This document shows, in pieces, positions 1-14,343 of a stretch of 14,343 nucleotides of DNA. This DNA is from a virus: UHGV virus genome UHGV-1692207, one strand, 5' to 3'. Position 1 is the first letter of the stretch. Each line of letters starts with the position of its first letter. Below the pieces are notes generated by a model, which saw nothing but the letters and a program-made list of their open reading frames with translations, was not told the origin of the DNA and ran no database searches. A program made the position numbers and the translations under genes.

Positions 1-2
1 AC

Positions 3-188
3 CGGGAAATCTTCAGGGAGTTTAACGGACGCAACCACCACGAACTGGCCCGCAAGTTTGGTGTTTCGCTTCAGTGGGTCTACAGCGTGGTTAAGCGGGT
101 CAGAAAAGAAGAACTGGATCGGATGCAGGGCAGGTTGTTTGATGAAGATCTGCCAGAGGAGACGAAAGACGTTAACAAATCCAGATAA
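3..188 (+). CDS. Mor/C-family phage transcriptional activator, C-terminal fragment (5' end outside window)
   Basis: Open frame from the window edge to TAA at 186-188 (missed by the ORF track, which needs a Met). Translation ...EIFREFNGRNHHELARKFGVSLQWVYSVVKRVRKEELDRMQGRLFDEDLPEETKDVNKSR matches from memory the C-terminal helix-turn-helix region of Mu Mor (dFNGRN..EL...yGV....vY...rR.R pattern). An intrinsic terminator follows. Confidence 0.55.
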   Translation, partial: REIFREFNGRNHHELARKFGVSLQWVYSVVKRVRKEELDRMQGRLFDEDLPEETKDVNKSR

Positions 189-232
189 TTCCTGCTTGTT
201 AAAGTCCTTTCAAAAATCTCCTTATTGTATAA

Positions 233-264
233 AAGCACGGTAGACCCCTTACCGTGCTTTTTTT
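233..264 (+). terminator. Rho-independent terminator downstream of the Mor/C-like gene
   Basis: Perfect 9-bp stem AGCACGGTA (234-242) / TACCGTGCT (250-258), 7-nt loop, followed directly by a run of six T (259-264). Confidence 0.6.
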
Positions 265-302
265 ATGCTCTCTCTTTAGTATTCAGGATGCAGGGAGAAA
301 AT

Positions 303-935
303 ATGTTTGACGTTTCGTTGTTAAATCTGCCATGGGCAACACTGGTGACCCTGACCAGTGGCTATATTGGGTATTTTATTGCGAATGTGGGACTGAAGGA
401 TCACCACAAGCCCATTGAGGTGACTTTTTCTTCGCTGATTTTTGGCCTGACAGCAATGATGGCTTACCAGGCTGTTATGTGGGCAGGTCTGAATGCCTGG
501 CTGGCAACACCACCAGCACTTCTGTGTGCCGTTACATGCGGTGCGTGGTGGCGCAGGTACGGTCGCAAATGGATGTACAGATTACTGTGGAATAATGATG
601 TTTCATGGTCTGACGATACCAGCTCAGCATGGCAGGCAATGTTTGATCAAACAGGCTTCAGCGTTACCGAGGTCAGAGTGATTCTTCGCGATGGTTCCGG
701 TATGATGTCACGGCTGCCAGGGAACTTTGAAGAGTGGCCTAACGGTCCGTTTACCCTGGGGAATAAAGGCGATATGGTTCTTTACGTCACGCACAGCAGC
801 CCTTCAGGCAGTAACGAATGGGAAGAGTATAAAGGCGTGGTTGATAAGTACTGGGGAGCTCTGGCAACCTATATTCCAGCAGATCAGATTGCCAGAGTGG
901 AGATCAGGCGCGTTCGTGCAACGAACGATGAATGA
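303..935 (+). CDS. Hypothetical inner-membrane protein: three predicted N-terminal transmembrane helices plus a ~125-aa soluble C-terminal domain; function unknown (candidate phage moron)
   Basis: ATG at 303 preceded by AGGGAG (292-297) with 5-nt spacing; the longer ORF-track start at 225 would begin inside the upstream terminator. Hydrophobic stretches at about residues 9-31, 36-61 and 65-83, followed by a positively charged RRYGRKWMYR segment, then a hydrophilic domain. I recognise no family by eye. Confidence 0.7.
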   Translation: MFDVSLLNLPWATLVTLTSGYIGYFIANVGLKDHHKPIEVTFSSLIFGLTAMMAYQAVMWAGLNAWLATPPALLCAVTCGAWWRRYGRKWMYRLLWNNDVSWSDDTSSAWQAMFDQTGFSVTEVRVILRDGSGMMSRLPGNFEEWPNGPFTLGNKGDMVLYVTHSSPSGSNEWEEYKGVVDKYWGALATYIPADQIARVEIRRVRATNDE

Positions 936-938
936 TGT

Positions 939-1100
939 TTATTTTTTCCCTGGGGCAGGGGCTGCCGGCATAGTGGTTTTATTGGCAGAGGAAGACGATT
1001 CTCCTTTTCTACCGGAATCGCGCTCGAACGTCACGATGTGCTTGCTTTTGGGCTTTTCTGAGTAATCCAGGCTATCATGCTTATTGTTTTGAGTAGTCAT
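939..1100 (-). CDS. Small hypothetical hydrophilic protein (53 aa, Lys/Ser/Thr-rich), convergent with the membrane protein gene
   Basis: Minus-strand ORF, ATG at 1100 to TAA at 941-939, translating MTTQNNKHDSLDYSEKPKSKHIVTFERDSGRKGESSSANKTTMPAAPAPGKK. AAGGA Shine-Dalgarno 8 nt upstream of the ATG; sigma70-like promoter about 40 bp further upstream. Below the 60-aa ORF-track cut-off. An in-frame alternative ATG at 1109 has a poorly spaced SD. Confidence 0.35.
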   Translation of the reverse strand: MTTQNNKHDSLDYSEKPKSKHIVTFERDSGRKGESSSSANKTTMPAAPAPGKK

Positions 1101-1143
1101 TGGAATCATCCTTTTTGTTGCGGGTCATGTTTCAGCAAACTCG

Positions 1144-1173
1144 ATTCTAAGTTGCCAGGAAGGATGATTTCAA
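1144..1173 (-). promoter_or_regulatory. Putative sigma70 promoter for the small minus-strand ORF
   Basis: On the minus strand: -35 TTGAAA (complement of 1168-1173), 18-bp spacer, -10 TAGAAT (complement of 1144-1149). Each hexamer matches consensus at 5 of 6 positions. Predicted start near 1137, giving a ~37-nt leader. Confidence 0.3.
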
Positions 1174-1317
1174 TGCCCGACTTATCTATCGTATAGCGGA
1201 AAAGAATTTCAGTTCTGTTCACCAGAACCCATGTTAACCCACTCCAATTCGTTATTTATCTCACGGATCCCCCTTCATTTATCTCATGTCTGATCACTCA
1301 CCCTGCTGAAAGATGAA

Positions 1318-2121
1318 GTGGTGATGCGCCAGGAAGCCACGGTGATCACCGTTGGTGGTTCCGACTACAAAAAACTGGTGAATCTGGGCGGCACGGCTTC
1401 CGGATGGGTTGGCGAGACTGACGCGCGCTCCCAGACTGCCACCTCAAAACTGGGCCTGATTGAACCTTTCATGGGGGAAATCTACGGTAACCCGCAGGCC
1501 ACCCAGAAAATGCTGGATGATGCCTTTTTCAACGTGGAAGCATGGATCAACAGCGAGCTGGCAACCGAATTTGCCGAACAGGAAGAAATTGCCTTTACCA
1601 CCGGCGATGGTACCAAGAAGCCGAAAGGGTTCCTGGCGTATGAATCCACTGATGAAACCGATAAGGTCCGGGCGTTCGGCAAACTTCAGCATATTGTATC
1701 CGGCGAAGCGACGGCGGTGACCGCAGACGCCATTATCAAACTGATTTACACGCTGCGTAAGGCACACCGCACTGGCGCGAAGTTCATGATGAACAACAAC
1801 AGCCTGTTTGCCATCCGTCTGCTTAAAGACAGCGAGGGTAACTATCTGTGGCGTCCGGGGCTGGAACTGGGGCAGCCGTCCTCTCTGGCGGGTTACGGTA
1901 TCGCTGAAAACGAACAGATGCCGGATATCGCCGCTGATGCGAAAGCCATTGCATTTGGTAACTTCAAACGGGGTTACACCATCGTTGACCGTATCGGCAC
2001 CCGCATTCTGCGTGACCCGTACACCAATAAACCGTTTGTCGGTTTTTATACCACCAAGCGCACCGGCGGGATGCTGGTCGATTCGCAGGCCATCAAACTG
2101 CTGAAGATTGCAGCGGCGTAA
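1318..2121 (+). CDS. Major capsid protein, HK97 family, C-terminal ~2/3 only; probable 5'-truncated remnant
   Basis: C-terminal region (GYGIAENEQMPD...FGNFKRGYTIVDRIGTRILRDPYTNKPFVGFYTTKRTGGMLVDSQAIKLLKIA) resembles the HK97 gp5 A-domain/C-terminus as I recall it; a TGDGT motif sits near residue 97. The frame is open only from the TGA at 1291-1293. Only a GTG (1318) or an ATG (1324) without a convincing SD is available as start. The ~130 aa that would carry the delta domain and N-arm are absent, and upstream sequence is non-coding. Confidence 0.7.
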   Translation: MVMRQEATVITVGGSDYKKLVNLGGTASGWVGETDARSQTATSKLGLIEPFMGEIYGNPQATQKMLDDAFFNVEAWINSELATEFAEQEEIAFTTGDGTKKPKGFLAYESTDETDKVRAFGKLQHIVSGEATAVTADAIIKLIYTLRKAHRTGAKFMMNNNSLFAIRLLKDSEGNYLWRPGLELGQPSSLAGYGIAENEQMPDIAADAKAIAFGNFKRGYTIVDRIGTRILRDPYTNKPFVGFYTTKRTGGMLVDSQAIKLLKIAAA

Positions 2122-2127
2122 TCACTC

Positions 2128-2150
2128 AGGGGCGCGGAACCGCGCCCCCT
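2128..2150 (+). terminator. GC-rich hairpin after the capsid gene (attenuator or partial terminator)
   Basis: GGGGCGC (2129-2135) pairs with GCGCCCC (2142-2148) around a GGAACC/GAAC loop. The downstream tract CTGTTCTG is only weakly T-rich, so readthrough is likely. Position after the major capsid gene is typical for stoichiometry control. Confidence 0.4.
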
Positions 2151-2170
2151 GTTCTGACGGGTGAAGAATC

Positions 2171-2371
2171 ATGATCCTGAAACAAGATCTGAAATGGTCA
2201 CCGGACGGTATGCGTGTTGAGGTCATTCGGGCCGGTGAGTATGACGATGGGGCGCTTCCTGCCCGGGTGCAGGAGATTGCACTTCAGGCCGGGTTAGCAG
2301 AGCGCGGAATCAGTGCAAAAAGCAGTAAAGCGGCAAAAGAGAAAAAAGCCACGACCAGTAAAGAGGGCTGA
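2171..2371 (+). CDS. Hypothetical small head-module protein (66 aa)
   Basis: ORF between the capsid and connector genes. Its stop (2369-2371) lies 3 nt before the next start. Lys-rich C-terminus. No family recognised. Confidence 0.45.
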   Translation: MILKQDLKWSPDGMRVEVIRAGEYDDGALPARVQEIALQAGLAERGISAKSSKAAKEKKATTSKEG

Positions 2372-2373
2372 GT

Positions 2374-2697
2374 ATGCTTCTGACAATGGAAGAGATTAAA
2401 GCCCAACTCCGGCTGGATGAGGATTTCGATGCTGATGACCGCCATCTGCAACTGCTGGCCTGTGCGGCACAAAAGCGGACGGAAACGTATCTGAACCGGA
2501 AGCTCTATGCACCGGATGAAACCATTCCGGACAGCGATCCGGACGGGCTGCACCTGCCGGATGATATTCGTCTGGGGATGCTGATGCTTATCAGCCATTT
2601 TTACGAAAACCGCTCGTCGGTTACGGAAGTGGAGAAACTCGACATGCCGCAGAGTTTTGGCTGGCTTGTCGGCCCGTACAGGTACTTTCCGCAATGA
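2374..2697 (+). CDS. Head-tail connector protein (phage gp6-like)
   Basis: 107 aa, MLLTMEEIKAQLRLDEDFDADDRHLQLLACAAQKRTETYL... resembles gp6-type connector N-termini. SD GAGGG precedes the ATG. Its TGA overlaps the next start as ATGA. Confidence 0.7.
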   Translation: MLLTMEEIKAQLRLDEDFDADDRHLQLLACAAQKRTETYLNRKLYAPDETIPDSDPDGLHLPDDIRLGMLMLISHFYENRSSVTEVEKLDMPQSFGWLVGPYRYFPQ

Positions 2698-3104
2698 AAA
2701 TTCGTCAGGCGCAGACCAGCGCAACCTACATTCTGCCGGACCCCGGTGAACTGAATAAACGCGTCCTGATCCGCCTGCGGGTGGATATGCCCGCGGATAA
2801 CTTTGGCGTGGAGCCTCAATACCTGATTACGTTCCGGACATGGGCGAAGGTTATCCAGACCAGTGCCACCACCTGGCAGGAAACCGCGCAGACCGGGGAC
2901 GCCATCACCCATTACATCACCATTCGTTACCGCCGGGGGATTACCGCTGATTATGAGGTGGTCTGCGGTGACAGTGTGTACCGGGTGAAACGTCAGCGCG
3001 ATCTGAACGGGGCGCGGCGCTTTCTGCTGCTGGAGTGTACGGAGCTGGGCGAATGTAGGCAGAGTCACGGAGGCAACAATGACGACTTCCTTTTTGCACG
3101 TTGA
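2694..3104 (+). CDS. Head-tail adaptor / head closure protein (lambda gpFII / HK97 gp8-like)
   Basis: 136 aa with the GEL..RV.I...........G.....T....WA.V......E......TH.ITIRYRRGIT pattern of the head-tail joining family. Start overlaps the upstream stop (ATGA). Confidence 0.7.
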   Translation: MKIRQAQTSATYILPDPGELNKRVLIRLRVDMPADNFGVEPQYLITFRTWAKVIQTSATTWQETAQTGDAITHYITIRYRRGITADYEVVCGDSVYRVKRQRDLNGARRFLLLECTELGECRQSHGGNNDDFLFAR

Positions 3105-3585
3105 TTTTCAGCAGCCCGCGGAGATGCGCTTTAACCGCGCCCGTGTCCGGCGGGCGTTTGTCACGATTGGTCAGCGTCATATGCGTGATGCCCGTCGGCT
3201 GGTGATGCGCCGTGCGCGGTCGGCACCGGGTGAAAACCCCGGTTATCAGACCGGACGCCTGGCTCGTTCGATTGGTTACATGGTACCCAGAGCCAGTAAA
3301 CATCGCCCTGGTTTTATGGCACGTATAGCCCCTAACCAGCGTAATGGAGAGGGAAACCGCCGTATCACCGGTGATTTTTATCCGGCTTTTTTGTTCTATG
3401 GCGTGAGGCGAGGGGCAAAGCGTCGTCGCAGCCATCATCGTGGTGCATCCGGTGGCAGCGGCTGGCGACTGGCTCCACGTAATAACTTTATGGTGGAAAC
3501 GCTTGAAAAGAACCGCAGCTGGACACGCTATTTTCTGGCGCGGGAATTACGTAAATCACTGAAGCCGGAGCGACGACGCAGATGA
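3079..3585 (+). CDS. Tail-component / neck protein, HK97 gp10-like
   Basis: 168 aa, Arg-rich, with GRLARSIGY and YPAFLFYG motifs that resemble HK97 gp10-family proteins. Strong SD GGAGG (3069-3073) 5 nt before the ATG at 3079. Overlaps the 3' end of the previous gene by 26 nt. Confidence 0.6.
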   Translation: MTTSFLHVDFQQPAEMRFNRARVRRAFVTIGQRHMRDARRLVMRRARSAPGENPGYQTGRLARSIGYMVPRASKHRPGFMARIAPNQRNGEGNRRITGDFYPAFLFYGVRRGAKRRRSHHRGASGGSGWRLAPRNNFMVETLEKNRSWTRYFLARELRKSLKPERRRR

Positions 3586-4142
3586 AACTGACGCCTGTTA
3601 TTGCTGCGCTGCGTGCCCGCTGCCCGTATTTTGAAAACCGGGTGGCAGGCGCGGCACAGTTCAAAAATCTGCCGGAGGTCGGAAAGCTGAGACTCCCGGC
3701 GGCATATGTGGTACCGGGTGATGACTCTCCGGGAGAAAACAAAAGCCAGACCGACTACTGGCAGGAGCTGAAAGAGGGCTTCTCCGTGGTTGTCATACTG
3801 AGTAACGGACGTGATGAGCGCGGTCAGTTTGCCTCGTATGATGTGGTGGACGATGTCCGGCAGATGCTCTTTAAGGCCCTGCTGGGCTGGAACCCGGAAG
3901 CGTGCGGTAACCCGATTACCTATGACGGCGGCACGCTGCTGGATCTGAATCGTCATGAGCTGATTTATCAGTTCGATTTTTCGGTCATCAGAGAGCTGAC
4001 CGAAGACGATACCCGCCAGCAGGATGACCTGAACAGTCTGGATGAACTGCGAACGCTGGCGATTGATGTTGATTATCTCGATCCCGGTAACGGGTCTGAC
4101 GGCGATATCGAACATCACACCGAAATACCCCTTCCTTCCTGA
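3582..4142 (+). CDS. Putative tail completion / tail terminator protein (precedes sheath)
   Basis: 186 aa. ATG overlaps the upstream stop (ATGA at 3582-3585). Acidic C-terminus. Its position directly before the sheath gene matches Mu/SfV-type tail modules. The 196-aa antisense ORF at 3528-4118 is treated as a shadow. Confidence 0.55.
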   Translation: MKLTPVIAALRARCPYFENRVAGAAQFKNLPEVGKLRLPAAYVVPGDDSPGENKSQTDYWQELKEGFSVVVILSNGRDERGQFASYDVVDDVRQMLFKALLGWNPEACGNPITYDGGTLLDLNRHELIYQFDFSVIRELTEDDTRQQDDLNSLDELRTLAIDVDYLDPGNGSDGDIEHHTEIPLPS

Positions 4143-4150
4143 GGATCATT

Positions 4151-4321
4151 ATGTTTGTGAAACCTGTTAAAGGGCGGTCAGTGCCTGACCCTGCCCGCGG
4201 CGACCTTTTGCCCGCCGAAGGGCGAAATGTTGATGAGAACAACTACTGGCTGCGCCGTGAAGCAGCGGGTGATATCCGGCGCGTGAATAAAAAGGTGAAC
4301 ACCGATGACGATAAGCTTTAA
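4151..4321 (+). CDS. Small hypothetical protein (56 aa) upstream of the sheath gene
   Basis: Not in the ORF track (<60 aa). ATG at 4151 with SD GAGGA (4141-4145) at 5-nt spacing. Translates MFVKPVKGRSVPDPARGDLLPAEGRNVDENNYWLRREAAGDIRRVNKKVNTDDDKL. Fills the only gap in the operon and its 3' end overlaps the sheath start. Confidence 0.4.
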   Translation: MFVKPVKGRSVPDPARGDLLPAEGRNVDENNYWLRREAAGDIRRVNKKVNTDDDKL

Positions 4322-5801
4322 CACCATTCCGTCGAATACGCTGGTTCCGCTGTTTTATGCGGAAATGGATAACCAGGCTGCGAATACTGCACAGGACAGC
4401 GGAGCATCGCTGCTGATTGGTCATGCCAATAACGGTGCAGAGATTGTTGCCAACAGTCTGGTACTGATGCCGTCGGCAGACTATGCACGCCAGATTTGTG
4501 GTGCGGGAAGTCAGCTGGCGCGTATGGTCGAGGCTTATCGCCAGACTGACCCGTTTGGCGAGCTGTATGTGATTGCCGTTCCTGAATCCACAGGCGCGGC
4601 GGCAACGGTTACGCTGACGGTGACCGGGGCGGCAACCGAAACCGGCACGGTGAATGTGTATGTGGGACGTACCCGCGTGCAGGTACCGGTGACTAACGGC
4701 GATAACGTTACGATGATTGCCAGCAGTATCCAGGATGCCATCAATGCCGTTCCGACCCTGCCGTTTACGGCTTCATCTTCGGCAGGCGTGGTCACACTGA
4801 CCGCGCGTCATAAGGGGCTTTGCGGGAATGAAATTCCTGTCAGCCTCAATTACTACGGCTTTGGTGGGGGCGAAGTGCTGCCAGCGGGCGTACAGATTGC
4901 CGTGGTGACGGGTACCGCCGGAACGGGTGCTCCGGTTCTCACCGGCGCTGTGGCTGCAATGGCGGATGAGCCGTTTGATTATATCGGCCTGCCGTTCAAC
5001 GACACGGCCTCCGTTAACACGCTGGTGACCGAGATGAACGATACCAGCGGTCGCTGGAGCTATGCGCGTCAGCTGTATGGTCATGTGTATACGGCAAAGA
5101 CCGGCACGCTGTCAGAACTGGTGACCGCAGGTGACCAGTTTAACCAGCAGCACATTACCCTGGCGGGGTACGAAAAAGACACCCAGACGCCTGCCGACGA
5201 GCTGGCGGCAAGCCGTACCGCCCGCGCAGCGGTGTTTATCCGCAACGATCCGGCACGTCCCACGCAGACCGGTGAGCTGGTGGGTATGCTGCCTGCGCCG
5301 AAGGGGAAACGGTTCACGATGACCGAACAAAAGACCCTGCTGTCTCATGGCGTGGCAACGGCGTATGTCGAAAGCGGGGTACTGCGCATTCAGCGTGATG
5401 TCACCACGTACAGGAAAAACGCTTACGGGGTTGCGGATAACAGCTACCTCGACAGCGAGACGCTGCATACCAGTGCGTATGTACTGCGCAAACTGAAATC
5501 CGTCATTACCAGTAAGTACGGGCGTCACAAGCTTGCCAGCGACGGTACCCGCTTTGGTCCCGGTCAGGCGATTGTCACCCCGGCGGTGATCAAAGGGGAA
5601 CTGCTGGCAACCTACCGTCAGCTTGAGCGTGCGGGGATCGTGGAAAACTACGAACTTTTTAAGCAGTACCTGGTTGTGGAGCGTGATGCCAGCGATCCGA
5701 ACCGCCTGAACACGCTGTTCCCGCCTGACTATGTTAACCAGTTGCGTGTCTTTGCCGTGGTTAACCAGTTCCGTCTTCAGTATTCAGAGGAGTCCGCATA
5801 A
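4305..5801 (+). CDS. Contractile tail sheath protein (Mu gpL-like)
   Basis: 498 aa. N-terminus MTISFNTIPSNTLVPLFYAEMDN resembles Mu L (ISFN.IPS...VPL.Y.E.DN) as I recall it. SD AAGGTGA precedes the ATG. Size and position fit a sheath. Confidence 0.9.
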   Translation: MTISFNTIPSNTLVPLFYAEMDNQAANTAQDSGASLLIGHANNGAEIVANSLVLMPSADYARQICGAGSQLARMVEAYRQTDPFGELYVIAVPESTGAAATVTLTVTGAATETGTVNVYVGRTRVQVPVTNGDNVTMIASSIQDAINAVPTLPFTASSSAGVVTLTARHKGLCGNEIPVSLNYYGFGGGEVLPAGVQIAVVTGTAGTGAPVLTGAVAAMADEPFDYIGLPFNDTASVNTLVTEMNDTSGRWSYARQLYGHVYTAKTGTLSELVTAGDQFNQQHITLAGYEKDTQTPADELAASRTARAAVFIRNDPARPTQTGELVGMLPAPKGKRFTMTEQKTLLSHGVATAYVESGVLRIQRDVTTYRKNAYGVADNSYLDSETLHTSAYVLRKLKSVITSKYGRHKLASDGTRFGPGQAIVTPAVIKGELLATYRQLERAGIVENYELFKQYLVVERDASDPNRLNTLFPPDYVNQLRVFAVVNQFRLQYSEESA

Positions 5802-6157
5802 TGGCCCGTATCGGGGGAACCTGTTATTTCAAAATTGACGGTCAGCAGCTATCGCTGACCGGCGGCATTGAGGTGCCCATGAACAGGACGGTCAATGATG
5901 ACATCATCGGCCTGGACGGTTCAGTGGACCGCAAGGAAACTCACCGTGCGCCTTATGTTAAAGGGACCTTCAAGGTGCCGAAGAATTTTCCGGTGAGCAA
6001 AATCACCTCGTCTGATGAGATGACCATCACTGCCGAGCTGGCGAACGGTCAGGTCTATGTACTGTCGTCTGCCTGGCTGCACGGCGAAGCGAACCATAAT
6101 GCCGAAGAAGGGACGGTTGATCTTGAGTTCCACGGTGAAGAAGGGGATTACCAGTAA
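5801..6157 (+). CDS. Tail tube protein (Mu gpM-like)
   Basis: 118 aa immediately after the sheath gene. Start overlaps the sheath stop (TAATG). SD GGAG at 5789-5792. Confidence 0.8.
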   Translation: MARIGGTCYFKIDGQQLSLTGGIEVPMNRTVNDDIIGLDGSVDRKETHRAPYVKGTFKVPKNFPVSKITSSDEMTITAELANGQVYVLSSAWLHGEANHNAEEGTVDLEFHGEEGDYQ

Positions 6158-6426
6158 TGAAAGAGCTTGAGTTAAAGAAACCGATTACCGCTCATGGCGA
6201 GACACTCTCCGTACTGGAGTTTGATGAGCCCACCGGGAAAGATGTCCGCGAGCTGGGGTATCCCTACCAGATGAATCAGGATGAGTCCGTCAGACTTCTG
6301 GCGCATGTGGTATCGAAATACATTGTGCGGCTGGCGAAAGTGCCGCAAAACTCTGTCGACCAGATGTCTCCGGCAGACCTGAATGCTGCGGCGTGGCTTG
6401 TGGCTGGTTTTTTCCTCCAGGCCTGA
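6157..6426 (+). CDS. Tail assembly chaperone (lambda G / P2 E analogue), short form
   Basis: 89 aa between the tube and tape measure genes. Start overlaps the tube stop (TAATG). A slippery heptamer lies near its 3' end. Confidence 0.7.
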   Translation: MKELELKKPITAHGETLSVLEFDEPTGKDVRELGYPYQMNQDESVRLLAHVVSKYIVRLAKVPQNSVDQMSPADLNAAAWLVAGFFLQA

Positions 6427-6575
6427 CGGCTGAATACCTCACTGATCGCTTCTTTGACTGCGCCAGCTACTGGCGCATTAATCCCTTCGAATTGCTGAAT
6501 ATGCCGATCAGTGAAATTCCCTTGCTGGTCAGTCAGGCAAACAGGATAGAGCAGGAGAAACGCACACATGGCTGA
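6157..6575 (+). CDS. Tail assembly chaperone, long form made by programmed -1 frameshift (G-T / E-E' analogue)
   Basis: Slippery heptamer T_TTT_TTC at 6408-6414 in the zero frame. The -1 frame is open from there to TGA at 6573-6575 (...FFPPGLTAEYLTDRFFDCASYWRINPFELLNMPISEIPLLVSQANRIEQEKRTHG), ending inside the tape measure start. Confidence 0.55.
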
Positions 6576-8403
6576 ATTTGAGCTTAAGGCGTTGATCACC
6601 GGTGTCGACAGGCTTTCTCCCGCGCTGTCGAAAATGCAAAAGAAAATCCGGGGATTTAAACGCCAGGCGGAAGAAGCGTCACAGGGTGGGCTGGCGCTTG
6701 GTGGCGGACTGGCTGCGGGTCTGACGCTTTCCCTGAAATCTTATGCCGATCAGGAAAACGCCGCCACCGGGCTGAAAGTTGCCATGATGGATGCGAACGG
6801 TGAGGTCGGAAAGCGCTTTCAGGACATCAATAAACTGGCTATTGGTCTGGGTAACCAGCTACCCGGTACAACGGCTGATTTCCAGAACATGATGCAGATG
6901 CTGGTGCGTCAGGGGATCCCGGCAGAAAACATTCTTGGCGGTGTGGGTAAAGCGACAGCTTATCTTGCGGTACAACTGAAAAAAACACCGGAAGCGGCTG
7001 CCGAGTTTGCCGCAAAGATGCAGGATGCTACCGGAACGGCGTCAGAAGACATGATGGGGCTGTTCGACACTATCCAGAAGGCGTTTTATCTGGGCGTTGA
7101 CGATACCAACATGTTGTCCTTCTTCACTAAAACCAGCTCTGTTCTGAAGATGGTGAACAAGGACGGTCTTCAGGCTGCACAGAGCCTTGCCCCCATCAGC
7201 GTCATGATGGATCAGATGGGGATGAACGGGGAGTCGGCAGGTAACGCCCTGCGAAAAGTTATCCAGTCCGGATTAAGCGTTAAGAAAATCAGGGACGTCA
7301 ATAAAGTCATGGCCCGCCAGAAACTCGGGGTACAGCTCGATTTTACTGACGGCAAAGGGAGTTTTGGCGGTCTTGATAACATGTTCAGGCAACTGGCAAA
7401 GCTGCGAAAACTGACCGACGTTAAGCGAACTGGTGTACTTAAGGCAATATTTGGTGATGATGCCGAAACCCTTCAGGTGGTCAATGCACTAATCGATAAA
7501 GGAAAGGATGGCTACGACCAGATCCAGCAGAAGATGAATAAACAGGCCAGTCTGAATAAACGTGTTCAGGCACAGCTTGGTACGCTGTCCAACCTGTGGG
7601 AGGCAATGACAGGGACCGCAACTAACGGCCTTGCGGCTATTGGCGGCGCATTTTCTGGTGACGCTAAAAATATCACGCAATGGCTGGGGGAGTTGGGGGA
7701 GAAATTCACGAAGTTTGCGGATGAAAATCCCCGGGTTATTCGCGGCGTCGTCGGGCTTGCTGCCGGTCTTGCGATTCTGAAACTGGGATTGATGGGCGTT
7801 GGCGGTGCCATCAGTATTGTCAGCAGGATCATGTCGATGACGCCGATTGGCATGATTGCGACGGCGATAGCCCTGGCTGCGGGATTAATTATCACTAACT
7901 GGGATGTTGTCGGACCTTATTTCAAGAAGCTCTGGGAAACCATTGGTCCTTATTTTGAGGCTGGCCGGGAACTTCTGAAGAAGGTTTTTGCCTGGTCGCC
8001 GCTGGGGATGGTAATCAATAACTGGGGACCGGTTGTTAAGTGGTTTCAGGATATGTGGGACAAGCTGAAGCCAATTATTGAGTGGTTTACCGACAGTTCC
8101 GGTGACACGGTCGATGCCATTAACTCTGCGCAGTGGGGCGCGGGTGCTTATGATGCTTATGGGACGGGAATACCGGCACGGGGATACACACCTTATCAGG
8201 CGGTGGATCCGGCTCAGTCAAACAACGCCTCCGGTGCCACAGGCCCGAATCCCTTCATGATTAACAAAGCTTCTGCGCCAAAAGTTGATGGTGAGATCAA
8301 GGTCTCTTTTGTGAATTCACCTCCGGGTATGCGGGTTATGGAAACGCGATCCAGCGGTTTTGATGTCAGCCATGATGTTGGCTATACGCGCTTTGGCAGG
8401 TAA
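6568..8403 (+). CDS. Tail tape measure protein
   Basis: 611 aa with Gly/Ala-rich hydrophobic segments and a position right after the chaperone frameshift pair. SD AGGAGA at 6552-6557. Confidence 0.85.
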   Translation: MAEFELKALITGVDRLSPALSKMQKKIRGFKRQAEEASQGGLALGGGLAAGLTLSLKSYADQENAATGLKVAMMDANGEVGKRFQDINKLAIGLGNQLPGTTADFQNMMQMLVRQGIPAENILGGVGKATAYLAVQLKKTPEAAAEFAAKMQDATGTASEDMMGLFDTIQKAFYLGVDDTNMLSFFTKTSSVLKMVNKDGLQAAQSLAPISVMMDQMGMNGESAGNALRKVIQSGLSVKKIRDVNKVMARQKLGVQLDFTDGKGSFGGLDNMFRQLAKLRKLTDVKRTGVLKAIFGDDAETLQVVNALIDKGKDGYDQIQQKMNKQASLNKRVQAQLGTLSNLWEAMTGTATNGLAAIGGAFSGDAKNITQWLGELGEKFTKFADENPRVIRGVVGLAAGLAILKLGLMGVGGAISIVSRIMSMTPIGMIATAIALAAGLIITNWDVVGPYFKKLWETIGPYFEAGRELLKKVFAWSPLGMVINNWGPVVKWFQDMWDKLKPIIEWFTDSSGDTVDAINSAQWGAGAYDAYGTGIPARGYTPYQAVDPAQSNNASGATGPNPFMINKASAPKVDGEIKVSFVNSPPGMRVMETRSSGFDVSHDVGYTRFGR

Positions 8404-8426
8404 TGAAAAATTAATCTGTTAATGAG

Positions 8427-8450
8427 TCCCACTCCGGTGGGATTTTTTAT
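8427..8450 (+). terminator. Intra-operon hairpin plus T-tract (attenuator or terminator) between the tape measure and N-like genes
   Basis: Stem TCCCAC (8427-8432) / GTGGGA (8437-8442), loop TCCG, then TTTTTTAT (8443-8450). Confidence 0.45.
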
Positions 8451-8463
8451 GTACGGAGTTTAT

Positions 8464-9792
8464 ATGACGTGGAAAGACAGACTTCAGGACGCGTCATTTC
8501 GCGGTGTGCCGTTTAAGGTTGAAGAAGAAAGTGCGGGAACCGGTCGTCGTGTGGAAACGCACGAATACCCGAACCGCGACAAACCCTATACCGAAGACCT
8601 GGGGAAAATCACTTTCCGCCCGTCCATCACAGCTTATGTGGTGGGAGATGACTGCTTTGACCAGCGCGATCGCCTGATTGACGCGCTGAATAAACCCGGT
8701 CCCGGCACGCTTGTCCATCCGACTTACGGTGAGCTGAAAGTCTGTGTTGACGGGGAAGTTCGGGTCAGCACATCGAAGAGTGAAGGGCGTATTGTCCGCT
8801 TTGACCTGAAGTTTGTCGAAGCGGGAGAACTCTCTTACCCCACTTCAGGTGCGGCGACGGCGCAGACGCTGATGTCATCCTGTTCTGCACTGGATGACTG
8901 CATCAGTGACAGCTTCAGTGGTTTCAGTATCGATGGCGTGGCAGATTTTGTGCAGAACGACGTCGTCGGTAATGCCAGCACAATGCTTGGGTATGTTTCT
9001 GATGCGATGAAAGTGGTGGATTCTGCCGTATCGGATGCCGCCAGGCTGTTGCAGGGGGATATCTCGGTACTTCTGCCGCCGCCATCGTCAGGCAAAAATT
9101 TCGTTGAGCAGGTGCAGAAAATGTGGCGTACCGGGAAACGCCTTTATGGTAACGCCAGCGACCTGGTCACCATGATCAAAACGCTTTCCGGTGTCAGCCT
9201 CGGCAGCGATCTGCAACCGCGCGGCGTCTGGAAAACGGACAGTAAAACCACCGCCACGGCGACGCAGCAGCGTAACGTGGTTGCCAGCACCCTTCGTACG
9301 ACCGCAATCAGCGAAGCGGCGTATGCCGTCACACGATTGCCTGCGCCCACAACTTCCGCGGTGATGCAGAATGCCACAGTGGGGCAGTCAACAACACCCG
9401 CGCAGAGCACCGGCTGGCCTTCTGTCACGCATCCGGCACTGAACAATGCACCGGCGGTGAAAAACACGGTTGACCTGCCAACGTGGGAAGAACTGACCGA
9501 CATTCGCGACACACTGAATACGGCAATTGATAAGGAGTTGTCCCGTACAACCAGTGATGTGCTGTTTCTGGCGCTGCGCCGGGTGAAAGCAGATCTGAAT
9601 GCGGATATCAACACGCGCCTTGAACAGTCTGCACGGATCATTCAGCGCACACCGGATGAGGTTTTACCCGCGCTGGTGCTGGCGGCGACCTGGTTTGATA
9701 ACGCGGCGCGTGACGCGGACATTATCCGGCGTAATGCCATTACGCATCCCGGCTTTGTGCCGGTGATCCCTCTGAAGGTGCCAGTGCAATGA
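8464..9792 (+). CDS. Mu gpN-like tail protein (DNA circularisation protein N family)
   Basis: N-terminus MTWKDRLQDASFRGVPFKV...GRRVETHEYPNRDKPYTEDLGK matches the Mu N signature as I recall it. I place the start at ATG 8464 (GGAG at 8455-8458, 5-nt spacing) rather than the ORF-track 8422, which would translate through the hairpin. Confidence 0.85.
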   Translation: MTWKDRLQDASFRGVPFKVEEESAGTGRRVETHEYPNRDKPYTEDLGKITFRPSITAYVVGDDCFDQRDRLIDALNKPGPGTLVHPTYGELKVCVDGEVRVSTSKSEGRIVRFDLKFVEAGELSYPTSGAATAQTLMSSCSALDDCISDSFSGFSIDGVADFVQNDVVGNASTMLGYVSDAMKVVDSAVSDAARLLQGDISVLLPPPSSGKNFVEQVQKMWRTGKRLYGNASDLVTMIKTLSGVSLGSDLQPRGVWKTDSKTTATATQQRNVVASTLRTTAISEAAYAVTRLPAPTTSAVMQNATVGQSTTPAQSTGWPSVTHPALNNAPAVKNTVDLPTWEELTDIRDTLNTAIDKELSRTTSDVLFLALRRVKADLNADINTRLEQSARIIQRTPDEVLPALVLAATWFDNAARDADIIRRNAITHPGFVPVIPLKVPVQ

Positions 9793-10868
9793 ACGATAAC
9801 GTCACGCTACGGGTAAATGGCCGGGAGTGGAATGGCTGGACATCGGTGCGCATCGGTGCCGGTATTGAACGGCTGGCGCGGGATTTCAGTGTGGAGATCA
9901 CCCGCCAGTGGCCGGGTGATGAGGGTATCACCACGCTTCAGCCGCGCATTAAAAACGGTTCAAAAGTGGAGGTGCTGATTGGTGATGAGCTGGTGATCAC
10001 CGGCTGGGTGGAGGCGACGCCCGTTCGTTACGATGCCCGTTCGGTCAGCACCGGTATTGCCGGACGCAGTCTGACCGCTGACCTGATTGACTGTGCAGCC
10101 GAACCGACACAGTTTAACGGACGATCGCTGGTACAGATTGCGCAGGCGCTTGCTGCGCCTTTCGGCATTGAGGTGGTGAACAACGGTGCGCCGTCGGGTG
10201 TTATTCCTGACGTCCAGCCCGATCACGGTGAAACGGTGATTGAGGTAATCAACAAAATACTCGGTCAGCAGCAGGCACTGGCTTACGACGACCCACACGG
10301 CAGGCTGGTGATTGGCGGTATTGGCTCAACGCGGGCACATACTGCGCTGGTACTCGGGGAAAACATCCTTTCCTGCGATACGGAGAAGAGTATCCGGGAG
10401 CGGTTTTCTGTTTACCAGGTGGCGGGGCAGCGTGCTGGAAACGACGATGATTTCGGTGAGGCCACCACCAGCGCGCTGCGGGCCCGCACAGAGGACGCAT
10501 TTATTGCCCGTTACCGTCCGATGTATATCAGGCAGACAGGGCAGGCTACGGGGGCAGGCTGTATTGCGCGTGCTGACTTTGAAGCCCGACAACGGGCGGC
10601 GCGGACGGATGAAACCACCTATGTGGTGCAGGGCTGGCGACAGGGTAACGGTACGCTGTGGCAGCCCAACCAGCGGGTGATTGTCTTCGATCCGGTCTGT
10701 GGTTTCGACAATACCGAACTGCTTGTCTCGGAAGTCACGTTTACTCAGGACCAGAACGGCACCCTGACGGAAATCCGTGTCGGCCCACCTGATGCTTATC
10801 TGCCTGAACCCGAAGCCCCCGGCGCGCGGAAAAAGAAAAAAGCCAGAGTACAGGAGGACCCGTTCTGA
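9789..10868 (+). CDS. Mu gpP-like baseplate hub / tail protein (P2 gpD-like)
   Basis: 359 aa. N-terminus ...LRVNGREWNGWTSVRIGAGIERLARDFSVEIT fits the gpD/Mu P family pattern. Start overlaps the upstream stop (ATGA). Confidence 0.8.
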   Translation: MNDNVTLRVNGREWNGWTSVRIGAGIERLARDFSVEITRQWPGDEGITTLQPRIKNGSKVEVLIGDELVITGWVEATPVRYDARSVSTGIAGRSLTADLIDCAAEPTQFNGRSLVQIAQALAAPFGIEVVNNGAPSGVIPDVQPDHGETVIEVINKILGQQQALAYDDPHGRLVIGGIGSTRAHTALVLGENILSCDTEKSIRERFSVYQVAGQRAGNDDDFGEATTSALRARTEDAFIARYRPMYIRQTGQATGAGCIARADFEARQRAARTDETTYVVQGWRQGNGTLWQPNQRVIVFDPVCGFDNTELLVSEVTFTQDQNGTLTEIRVGPPDAYLPEPEAPGARKKKKARVQEDPF

Positions 10869-11416
10869 TGAGTACGATTGAAGCCATGCAGCGACAACTC
10901 CTCGGCCTGATTGGGCGGGCAGTGGTGAAAAGCATCAGTGCCGCCACGAAATGTCAGACCGTGGATGTGTCCCTGATTGCCGGTGAACCCAAAGCCGGGG
11001 TTGAACATCTTGAACCCTACGGTTTTACCGCAAGGGCAAACAGCGGTGCGGAAGCGGTGGTGTTGTTTCCGGATGGTGACCGTTCTCATGCGGTGGTTGT
11101 TACGGTGTCGGACCGGCGCTACCGCCTGAAAGGGCTGCAGACGGGTGAGGTGGCGGTCTATGACGATCAGGGGCAGTCTGTGACGCTGACCCGGGAGGGG
11201 ATCGTGGTGGACGGTGCAGGTAAAACGATCACGTTTCGCAATGCACCTGAAGCACGTTTTGAAATGGACCTGGAAGTGACAGGACAGGTGAAAGACCTGT
11301 GCGACTCCAGCGGCACCACCATGTCAGCGATGCGGCTTGCCTATAACGGGCATCGTCACAGAGAGAACGGTCAGGGCAGTAACACCGACAAACCTGATAA
11401 AGCGATGGAGGCATGA
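10868..11416 (+). CDS. Baseplate assembly protein V-like (Mu gp45-like spike)
   Basis: 182 aa. Start overlaps the upstream stop (TGATG). Position after the P-like gene. Confidence 0.7.
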   Translation: MSTIEAMQRQLLGLIGRAVVKSISAATKCQTVDVSLIAGEPKAGVEHLEPYGFTARANSGAEAVVLFPDGDRSHAVVVTVSDRRYRLKGLQTGEVAVYDDQGQSVTLTREGIVVDGAGKTITFRNAPEARFEMDLEVTGQVKDLCDSSGTTMSAMRLAYNGHRHRENGQGSNTDKPDKAMEA

Positions 11417-11841
11417 TGGAACTGTGGCTGACGGTGAACGGTAAACGCACCTGCGCCAGCGCACCGCTGGATCCGCTGACCCGCGCCGTGGTGATTTCCC
11501 TGTTTACCTGGCGGCGGGCGGAGCCTGATGACAACGCCGACGTCCCGATGGGATGGTGGGGGGATACCTGGCCTGCGGTACAGAATGACCGTTACGGCTC
11601 CCGACTGTGGCTGCTTCAGCGCAGCAAACTGACCAATCAGCTGGTGCAGACGGTAAGGGGGTATATCCGCGAATGCCTGCAATGGATGATTGATGACGGC
11701 GTGGTGTCCCGTATTGATCTGGATATCCTCCGCACCGGGATTAATGAACTGGGTAACAGTATCACTCTCTGGCGTCGTGACGGACCGGTAATGATTTCTT
11801 TAGATGATCTGTGGAGTGCGATAACGCATGGCGGACAGTGA
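11413..11841 (+). CDS. Baseplate protein, Mu gp46 / GPW (gp25-like) family
   Basis: 142 aa, in conserved order after the V-like gene. Start is ATG 11413 or the adjacent 11416; GGAGG at 11406-11410 favours 11416. Confidence 0.7.
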   Translation: MMELWLTVNGKRTCASAPLDPLTRAVVISLFTWRRAEPDDNADVPMGWWGDTWPAVQNDRYGSRLWLLQRSKLTNQLVQTVRGYIRECLQWMIDDGVVSRIDLDILRTGINELGNSITLWRRDGPVMISLDDLWSAITHGGQ

Positions 11842-12886
11842 ATTTCAGCGCCCGACGCTGGCAGAAAATATCAGTATGCTCCGTAACGATTTATTCGCCA
11901 GGCTGGACGTCAGCGACACGCTCCGGCGCATGGATGAAGACGTGCGGGCAAAGGTGTATGCGGCGGCGCTGCATACGGTTTACGGGTACATCGATTATCT
12001 GGCAATGAACATGCTGCCTGACCTGTGCGATGAGTCCTGGCTGGCGCGACATGCTGCGATGAAACGGTGTCCGCGCAAGGGGGCCACGACTGCCAGCGGG
12101 TATATGCGCTGGGAAGGCGTCAGCGATGGCCTGAAGGTGACCGCCGGGAGTGTTATTCAGCGCGATGACCTGATTCAGTACACGGCAACTGCCGATGCAA
12201 CCAGCGCCGGTGGTGTCCTGCGCGTGCCGATCGCCTGCTCAAGTGCAGGCGCGGTCGGTAACGCTGACGACGGTACGTCATTAATCCTGGTCACGCCGGT
12301 TAATGGTCTGCCGTCTTCCGGCGTGGCAGACACTCTGACAGGTGGATTTGATACTGAAGAGCTGGAAACGTGGCGCGCCCGCGTCATTGAGCGGTATTAC
12401 TGGACGCCTCAGGGCGGGGCTGACGGGGACTATGTTGTCTGGGCTAAAGAATTGCCCGGCATTACCCGCGCATGGGCATACCGTCACTGGATGGGAACGG
12501 GGACTGTCGGTGTGATGATTGCCAGCAGTGACCTGATTAATCCCATTCCGGAAGAATCAACGGAAACGGCGGCAAGACAACATATCGGGCCACTGGCCCC
12601 GGTGGCAGGCTCTGATTTGTATGTGTTCAGGCCGGTGGCGCATACGGTGGATTTTCATATCCGTGTGACGCCGGATACACCGGAAATACGGGCTGCCATC
12701 ACCGCGGAGTTGCGTTCGTTCCTGCTGCGTGATGGTTATCCGCAGGGAGAACTGAAGGTGTCGCGTATCAGTGAAGCGATTTCCGGTGCGAACGGGGAAT
12801 ACAGCCATCAATTGCTTGCACCGGCGGAAAATATCTCCATTGCAAAAAATGAACTGGCGGTTCTGGGGACGATTTCATGGGCGTGA
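11828..12886 (+). CDS. Baseplate J-like protein (Mu gp47-like)
   Basis: 352 aa, in conserved position. Overlaps the upstream gene by 14 nt and the downstream gene by 10 nt. Confidence 0.8.
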
Positions 12887-13461
12887 CAAACGATGATTAC
12901 ATCCGTCTGTTGTCGGCACTGCTGCCGCCCGGTCCGGCGTGGTCAGCCAGCGATCCGGCGATTGCCGGTGCGGCACAGTCATTAACCCGCGTTCATCAGC
13001 GTGCGGATGCCCTGATGCGGGAGCTGGATCCGCGCACCACCACCGAACTGATAAATCGCTGGGAGCGTCTGTGCGGCCTGCCGGATGAATGTATTCCCGC
13101 AGGAACACAGACCCTTCGCCAGCGTCAGCAACGACTGGATGCGAAGGTTAACCTGGCGGGCGGCATCAATGAGGATTTTTACCTTGCACAGCTTGCTGCC
13201 CTGGGCAGACCAGACGCCACCATCACGCGATACGACAAAAGCACGTTCACCTGCTCATCGGCCTGTACTGACGCGGTGAATGCGCCGGAATGGCGGTATT
13301 ACTGGCAGGTCAACATGCCAGCCGCCACCAACAGCACCTGGATGACATGTGGCGATCCCTGTGATTCCGCGCTGCGTATCTGGGGCGACACCGTCGTCGA
13401 ATGTGTGCTTAACAAACTCTGCCCTTCGCATACCTACGTAATTTTTAAATATCCGGAGTAA
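12877..13461 (+). CDS. Mu gp48-like tail protein (DUF2313 / YmfQ-like)
   Basis: 194 aa immediately upstream of the tail fibre gene, as in Mu-like baseplate modules. Cys-rich C-terminus. Confidence 0.7.
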
Positions 13462-13464
13462 TCC

Positions 13465-14232
13465 ATGCATCGTATAGACACGAAAACCGCGCAGAAGGAT
13501 AAGTTCGGCGCGGGTAAGAACGGTTTTACCCGTGGTAACCCCCAGACAGGCACGCCTGCCACCGATCTGGATGATGAGTACTTTGACATGTTGCAGGAAG
13601 AACTCTGCAGCGTGGTGGAGGCATCCGGTGCCAGTCTGGAGAAGGCGCGGCACGACCAGCTGCTTACCGCGCTTCGTGCGCTGCTGTTAAGCCGCAAGAA
13701 TCCGTTTAGCGATATCAAATCGGACGGCACGGTGAAAACGGCTCTCGAAAACCTTGGTTTGGGGGAAGGCTCTGCATTGCCTGTTGGTGTACCGGTTCCA
13801 TGGCCCACCGCCACACCGCCAGCAGGCTGGTTAAAGTGCGACGGGCGCGCCTTTACAAAAGAACAATATCCTGTTCTGGCCAGAGTCTACCCGACCCTCC
13901 GTCTTCCTGATTTACGCGGTGAGTTTATCCGTGGATGGGACGACGGGCGCAAGATTGACGAGGGGCGTAAGTTGCTTTCATGGCAGAAAGGTACACTGGT
14001 CGGCGGTCATGACGATAACGATTCTTCGCTGGATATCTCGTACATGAGTAACGGAAATAATATTGACTATGGCGGCGATAAGGTGTTTGCGGGGAATTAC
14101 CGTAGCGATTATTTGTGGTACGCAATTCTGGGTGGAACAAACAGTCGCGCAAAAGCCGAATTAAACGGAGCATTCTTTAACATAACCCGCCCCCGCAATA
14201 TCGCGTTTAACTATATCGTGAGGGCGGCGTGA
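13465..14232 (+). CDS. Tail fibre protein: conserved N-terminal baseplate-attachment part fused at an invertase crossover site to a variable C-terminal part with a tail-collar domain
   Basis: 255 aa. SD GGAG (13455-13458) 6 nt before the ATG. Collar-like motif PVGVPVPWP...[17 protein letters not shown]-terminus [11 protein letters not shown] is nearly identical to the lambda Stf C-terminus ([11 protein letters not shown]) as I recall it. Residues ALENLGL are encoded by the hix/gix-like site. Confidence 0.8.
13742..13767. other. Putative 26-bp crossover site for a Hin/Gin/Cin/Pin-family serine DNA invertase (left boundary of an invertible tail-fibre segment)
   Basis: CTCTCGAAAACC-TT-GGTTTGGGGGAA: imperfect dyad around a central TT. 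The left half matches the hixL half-site TTCTTGAAAACC at 10 of 12 positions. It sits in the tail fibre gene where constant and variable parts join. Confidence 0.5.
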
Positions 14233-14238
14233 TACCGT

Positions 14239-14343
14239 TCAGCTGGCAAGTGCCAGTGGCGCTTCCGGCCAGCTGATTTCAGGTGCCGTGCTGATATCCA
14301 GTGCGTTCAGCTCGTCGATATAATCCAGCACGGCGTTCAGTTT
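14239..14343 (-). CDS. Tail fibre assembly protein (Tfa-like), C-terminal fragment; 5' end beyond window
   Basis: Minus-strand frame open from the window edge to TGA (complement of 14239-14241). Translation ...KLNAVLDYIDELNALDISTAPEISWPEAPLALAS resembles the lambda Tfa C-terminus (...RVDTSTAPDIEWPAVP...) as I recall it. Convergent with the tail fibre gene, 6 nt between stops. Confidence 0.5.
   Translation of the reverse strand, partial: KLNAVLDYIDELNALDISTAPEISWPEAPLALAS

Follow-up and report, generated by a model that had tools for sequence, protein, structure and literature searches.

The capsid gene near the left end of the viral DNA analysed here (UHGV virus genome UHGV-1692207; 14,343 nt, hereafter the window) was very probably split by a BcepMu-like transposable prophage of about 38 kb that inserted in a resident SfV-like prophage, and we assign this reading a probability of about 0.93. 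The Mor gene on the one hand and the capsid and tail genes on the other belong to two different phages, and the head and packaging module of the resident phage is displaced, not lost. The element would have transposed into codons 128-129 of the resident capsid gene. Of the two junctions, the window includes the right one only; it contains, in order, the last 1296 bp of the element, a duplicated CTCACC, codons 128-401 of the capsid gene and the operon for head completion and tail, which is untouched. A preliminary description of the window had assumed that Mor and the capsid gene were parts of one phage and had therefore expected lysis, terminase, portal and protease genes in the space between the two; this expectation falls away, because Mor belongs to the inserted element.

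The 3′ fragment of an HK97-family major capsid gene occupies positions 1297-2121 on the plus strand, comprises codons 128-401 and the stop codon of the resident gene, and has no start of its own. The in-frame TGA at 1291-1293 leaves the frame open from 1294, and the earliest candidate starts are GTG 1318 (267 aa), GTG 1321 and ATG 1324 (265 aa); direct reading of the sequence revealed no convincing ribosome-binding site at any of the three. The preliminary description had reported a frame opening only at 1294 without credible initiation and a loss of about 130 residues, and both observations were borne out. Ungapped comparison places window position 1297 at nucleotide 382 (codon 128) of the intact UTI89 capsid gene, so that 127 of the 401 codons of this homologue are absent, and the fragment is 100% identical to UTI89 WP_000257492.1 from nucleotide 382. 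The window product belongs to the HK97-fold major capsid protein family PF05065 (Phage_capsid; E = 3.1e-73, 247 bits, cutoff 24.2). The match covers profile positions 23-280 only, and the intact UTI89 protein matches positions 1-280 at residues 115-398. The N-terminal delta-like scaffolding region, profile positions 1-22 and a start codon are all missing from the window product.

Could the window represent a single Mu-like phage with an odd gene order and a naturally short, delta-less capsid? Such a phage would agree with the Mu-like character of the tail genes (Mu Gp45, GP46 and DNA circularization families) and with Mor as a Mu-type regulator, but the in-frame stop at 1291-1293 and the absent profile positions argue against it, as does the size of the relatives. 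The nearest solved structure to the intact homologue is the RcGTA capsid 6TB9 (386 aa, E = 5.9e-75), and the alignments of the intact protein with 6TB9 and with the major head protein 9GYI (385 aa) start at about residue 31-47. Since the full-length relatives measure about 385-401 aa and their alignment starts in the N-terminal region, the window product does not represent a naturally short subfamily; the alignment check raised in the preliminary description, which could have identified a complete delta-less capsid, thus gave the opposite answer. In addition, the two halves of the window are never contiguous in the complete genomes searched, and the element to which Mor belongs carries a complete set of head genes and P2-like tail genes of its own on the opposite strand. 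We consider the single-phage explanation hardly credible.

The resident part of the window is almost identical to intact prophages. The head-tail joining, sheath, tube, tape-measure and baseplate genes (2171-13577, plus strand) are intact according to the UTI89 annotation and the Pfam assignments on contig L003, in agreement with the preliminary description. The reference was the UTI89 prophage (NC_007946.1, about 2,904,590-2,934,393), and ungapped comparison of window 1297-13577 with it (12.3 kb) gave one mismatch, at window position 4150. Window 1297-3100 is 100% identical to the interior of the annotated capsid gene and the DNA downstream in UTI89, APEC O1, S88, IHE3034, ATCC 11775 and many others. 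The gene order in UTI89 is lysis, HNH, TerS, TerL, portal, HK97-family protease, 401-aa capsid, head-tail connector, sheath, tube, tape measure and baseplate. In UTI89, APEC O1, S88, IHE3034 and ATCC 11775 the capsid gene is whole (401 aa) and comes directly after the protease, portal, TerL, TerS and HNH genes. In the resident phage, an early region of lambdoid type is combined with an HK97-type head and a contractile tail resembling that of Mu. At window 13578-14343 the identity with UTI89 breaks down within a tail-fibre gene, and this fits a variable or invertible fibre segment.

As the preliminary description had stated, no terminase, portal or protease is encoded between the Mor stop codon (186-188) and position 1297. 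This interval contains a terminator-like hairpin, a 210-aa ORF, an opposite-strand 53-aa ORF and about 200 bp of non-coding terminal DNA. The absence of head and packaging genes upstream of a cut capsid gene, yet with intact tail genes downstream, had led to the proposal that lysis, terminase, portal, protease and the 5′ part of the capsid gene were lost by deletion or replacement, leaving a decaying prophage or a tailocin-like tail element. A single mismatch in 12.3 kb against the intact prophage argues against long decay, and this one-base difference from the intact copies implies a recent event. The DNA to the left of 1297 argues against deletion as well, as it is the terminus of a transposable phage, with TG...CA ends and binding-site repeats. 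The earlier placement of a junction within 1100-1300 was correct, and it lies between 1296 and 1297; its interpretation as a deletion or replacement scar was not, because it is the right terminus of a transposable prophage.

Positions 1-1296 (plus strand) are the right-terminal 1296 bp of this prophage, which has a length of about 38 kb and ends in ...TGATCA-3′ at 1296. The 3′ end of the element gene mor, encoding a Mor-family late-transcription activator, lies at 3-188 on the plus strand (last 61 codons and stop) and matches Pfam PF08765 (E = 2.5e-17, profile positions 63-107 of 107); the RefSeq annotation is "Mor family protein" in all matches listed. Directly 3′ of mor, a terminator-like hairpin (231-261) with a 13-pair stem is followed by the T-run TTTATGCTCT (231-271 in total, plus strand), and its match to the consensus suggests a putative terminator. 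The 210-aa ORF (303-935, plus strand) matches phrog_12870 over its full length (E = 7.6e-134) and corresponds to the KE50 hypothetical protein WP_000460690.1; the N-terminal half of its product is hydrophobic. The 53-aa ORF (939-1100, minus strand) matches phrog_15726 over its full length (E = 9.9e-42; RefSeq WP_001571575.1) and is preceded by a promoter-like site (TTGAAA-18-TAGAAT, 1173-1144, minus strand). No match for either ORF was obtained with Pfam and PADLOC. The two ORFs are convergent and are located between the hairpin after mor and the right end, a position typical of accessory (moron) cargo. Two subterminal ATTTATC repeats at 1254-1260 and 1277-1283 (minus strand; GATAAAT in the inward direction from the end) are candidate binding sites R2 and R1 for the transposase.

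Megablast of window 1-1296 against deposited phage genomes returned matches only in the mor part (1-148), in PhiKM and Phi06_2974 B, and for window 189-1296, which includes both small ORFs and the end, megablast found nothing similar in PhiKM or any other deposited phage genome. The right-end cargo (189-1296) is thus a variant known only from prophages, with no counterpart in a sequenced virion. The last ~145 bp with both ATTTATC sites (window 1143-1287) recur at 89.7% identity on APEC plasmids of 185-190 kb, for example at 4001-4144 of contig L018 (NZ_CP126929.1), and one chromosome also has a copy. These 145-bp copies are unannotated and adjoin IS1 and IS3 fragments; what they represent is apparently a terminus left stranded by a related element.

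Complete copies of the element are present elsewhere. The copy in KE50 is 38,007 bp long and splits fliC, and that in CU39ES-1 is 38,341 bp long and splits flgA, the halves of which are annotated as pseudogene fragments, one on each side of the element. Both copies start with TGATG and finish with TGATCA, giving TG...CA bounds, and they are flanked by 6-bp direct repeats (CTCAGA in fliC of KE50, CCGCAC in flgA of CU39ES-1). The element ends form imperfect inverted repeats in which 16 of the first 23 nt are common to both, and GATAAAT sits 13 and 36 nt from the tip at both ends, where it would be bound by the transposase. A Gin-like invertase is encoded on one strand of the element, together with P2-like tail genes, lysis genes and head genes of Mu-like type (virion morphogenesis, minor head protein, DUF935 portal and terminase). 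The other strand, read toward the right end, carries a repressor region and the genes for an rve transposase, an AAA+ protein (ExeA/AAA_22), Gam, GemA/gp16 and Mor. The corresponding families (PF00665, PF13401, PF07352, PF06252 and PF08765) were found among the element genes of contig L003, which is identical to the window in the overlap.

The transposase is 98.6% identical to that of Escherichia phage PhiKM (PQ738613.1), 93.5% to that of Klebsiella phage KP12 and 68.5-69.4% to those of the Burkholderia phages BcepMu and phiE255. One published account describes BcepMu-related prophages as characterised by TG...CA termini and a Tn552-related rve transposase (PMC2628397). The element examined here shows the TG...CA termini, inverted repeats with subterminal sites, 6-bp duplications, many insertion sites and the gene set by which a BcepMu-like element is recognised. 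The literature consulted contained no usable statement on PhiKM or on the length of the BcepMu duplication. A match of 1300 nt in KE50 runs 4 nt beyond the true end, but only by coincidence: the fliC target (L007 6240-6290, L001 21290-21300) by chance contains TGATCACTCA, which resembles the element tip and lengthens the apparent match to window position 1300.

The two sides of the junction were never found together in complete genomes. Two queries, one of 2.4 kb that crosses the junction and one of 801 bp with the junction at its centre, were compared with 5,426 complete E. coli genomes. None of the 1,785 records matching the 2.4-kb query covered both sides, and none of the 1,265 records for the 801-bp query spanned the junction; the latter matches stopped at query positions 597-603 or started at 598-604. 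On the window scale, matches end at 1296-1302 or begin at 1297-1303. The best 30 of the 1,785 records all stop at window 1296-1302 with 99.7-100% identity and adjoin varied genes, at least 14 distinct ones among the 30 genomes listed; the neighbours of the right end include fliC, yfaV, flgA, clbG, yeiB, rstB, fadM, kefF, a terminase and a late control D gene. A 37-nt junction string had no match in GTDB species representatives, IMG/VR or JGI metagenome contigs.

The junction was located only through exact-protein look-ups of both capsid fragments. The 265-aa capsid product is listed on 35 contigs, and independent assemblies in Logan and ENA, built from different runs (including ERR9629649 and SRR13172306), contain the right junction with 0 mismatches to the window over 12,121 nt. 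In these assemblies, the 10 kb upstream of the right junction encode the repressor, rve transposase, AAA+, Gam, GemA and Mor genes and are 99.26% identical to KE50. The junction marks a rare lineage, which has been encountered to date in no assemblies other than those of Logan and ENA. Its absence from the complete genomes and the three large collections would also be expected of an assembly chimera, that is, two unrelated prophages misjoined at a junction that exists in no real genome. The recurrence of the identical junction and of the 265-aa product across these independent assemblies argues against a chimera, as do the position of the break exactly at the natural terminus of the element and the existence of a reciprocal junction whose 6-bp duplication has the length observed at two other insertions. 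A chimera has practically negligible probability.

The reciprocal junction was identified from its predicted product. The intact UTI89 capsid gene has a single CTCACC at the target, and transposition predicts a duplication of CTCACC together with capsid codons 1-129 stopped by the terminal TGA of the element, which gives a 129-aa product. Exactly this N-terminal product exists in public protein data (P0055; NCBI, Logan and ENA). The predicted junction strings are ...AACATTCTCACC/TGATGCGCC... on the left and ...TGATCA/CTCACCCTGCTG... on the right (the slash marks the junction), and the uninterrupted target is AACATTCTCACCCTGCTG. Six contigs (L009, L010 and L013-L016) carry the left junction. 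It reads ...AACATT CTCACC/TGATGCGCC... or, with a stretch of different length, ...AACATT CTCACC/TGATGCGCCGCGCGATAAATGCAC..., and CTCACC/TGATGCGCCGCGCGATAAATG is the join of capsid codons 1-129 to the element in all six. The right junction in the window reads ...TGATCA/CTCACC CTGCTG, in longer form ...CATGTCTGATCA/CTCACC CTGCTG..., where the CTCACC at 1297-1302 (plus strand; capsid codons 128-129, Leu-Thr) is the right-hand copy of the 6-bp target-site duplication.

The left-junction contigs carry the lysis genes, HNH, TerS, TerL (577 aa), portal (413 aa), protease (216 aa) and capsid codons 1-129, and the lengths of TerL, portal and protease equal those in UTI89. The 129-aa fragment is followed by the resolvase/invertase gene of the element on the opposite strand. 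In the longest of these contigs (L009), the 10,387 nt that precede the junction match UTI89 at 99.96% identity, and this alignment ends at the last base of CTCACC, and the 3 kb downstream are 98.9% identical to the left end of the KE50 element; the contig runs on into tail-fibre genes resembling the left end of the element. The terminal TGA of the element serves as the stop at both junctions, for the 129-aa fragment (L009 10391-10393) and in the capsid frame of the window (1291-1293).

The target duplication measured 6 bp at all three insertions examined (CTCAGA, CCGCAC and CTCACC), with the CTCACC junctions lying on separate contigs. The left- and right-junction contigs listed belong to different sample accessions; given their orientation and the complementary duplication of 6 bp, both junctions would be expected together in one genome. 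The element is not covered by any single contig, since short-read assemblies are interrupted in the tail-fibre/invertible region. Three further contigs (L011, L012 and L017), which end within a base of the junction, were considered as mixed alleles; this reading was rejected, because the look-up with the 129-aa product selects partial genes at contig ends. Their last bases follow the intact gene, and L017 has the target variant CTTACC.

One left-junction contig has an unusual structure. L010 (Logan SRR29061811_77) contains positions 7374-14006 of a UTI89-type prophage, the left junction and about 1 kb of the left end of the element, and then passes through a shared tail-fibre stretch of about 245 bp into the far right end of the prophage (tfa, GmrSD). 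It represents either a real deletion of about 50 kb between tail-fibre/invertible regions or a jump in the k-mer graph. If real, this contig, which joins the left ~1 kb of the element to the far right end of the prophage, would be a large deletion derivative and would lend support to a deletion. L010 lacks the window junction, however, and its join falls within the ~245 bp common to two tail-fibre genes, as expected of a k-mer-graph jump. The six contigs in which the reciprocal junction and the same 6-bp duplication accompany an intact module for head and packaging weigh heavily against the deletion hypothesis, which we regard as very unlikely. A tailocin element lacks capsid, portal, protease and terminase genes, and here the head and packaging genes are found on the left-junction contigs. 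The decaying prophage or tailocin of the preliminary description is thus replaced by a newly disrupted prophage with its head module kept across the insert; "defective" applies only in the sense that it presumably makes no heads.

Insertion of the transposable prophage would have proceeded as follows. The DDE (rve) transposase would bind the repeated GATAAAT-containing sites at both ends of the element, the 3′-CA ends would be joined to target cuts staggered by 6 bp, and gap repair would duplicate CTCACC. This chemistry is deduced from the end structure, the duplication and established knowledge of the transposase class. Capsid codons 1-129 and the protease, portal, terminase, HNH and lysis genes would then lie about 38 kb upstream, beyond the insert, and translation of the capsid 5′ fragment would end at the TGA contributed by the element. 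The resident prophage is presumably unable to make capsids, and with 38 kb of foreign DNA in between, its late transcripts would probably fail to reach the tail genes.

The element resembles BcepMu, phiE255, PhiKM and KP12 in its rve transposase, AAA+ partner, Gam, GemA, Mor and TG...CA termini, and it shares with BcepMu-type phages an early region divergent from a late region that contains Mu-like head and P2-like tail genes. It is unlike PhiKM and other deposited phages in its last ~1.1 kb. As in coliphage Mu, insertion into genes is near-random, both halves of the target gene are kept, the target duplication is short and transposase-binding repeats are subterminal. Target duplications of Mu are 5 bp long, and Tn552-type transposases give duplications of 6-7 bp; unlike Mu, the element makes 6-bp duplications, which fit a Tn552-type transposase for this reason, and its early operon reads outward to the right end. 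The resident prophage has the same capsid-to-baseplate gene order as the prophage in UTI89, APEC O1, S88, IHE3034 and ATCC 11775, but differs from UTI89-type prophages in that 38 kb of a foreign prophage separate codon 129 from codon 128 of the duplicated target. Within the window, the contractile-tail block without an adjoining functional capsid gene is reminiscent of R-type tailocins. Tailocin loci have no head or packaging genes at all and possess their own regulation and lysis cassette; here, in contrast, the head and packaging module is intact across the insert, and the tail genes simply belong to a prophage that was disrupted recently.

On induction of the transposable phage, read-through from its rightward early-middle operon via mor could conceivably transcribe the resident tail genes, so that the insertion would have rewired the orphaned operon for head completion and tail. 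This idea derives from gene orientation, and a terminator-like hairpin follows mor; no outward promoter was detected, and we consider such read-through highly improbable. If it did occur, the products might be tails without heads, as in a nascent tailocin, or tails that another phage could use.

The event is a classic outcome of Mu-type insertional mutagenesis; its mechanism is already known, and both phages are represented in databases. For annotation, the case illustrates that a truncated head module beside Mor can mimic decay or tailocin domestication when it is actually the edge of a second prophage. For the biology of E. coli prophages, the finding documents a widespread BcepMu-like prophage with 6-bp duplications, TGATG...TGATCA ends and paired GATAAAT sites, and its ability to knock out a resident prophage through insertion in the capsid gene.
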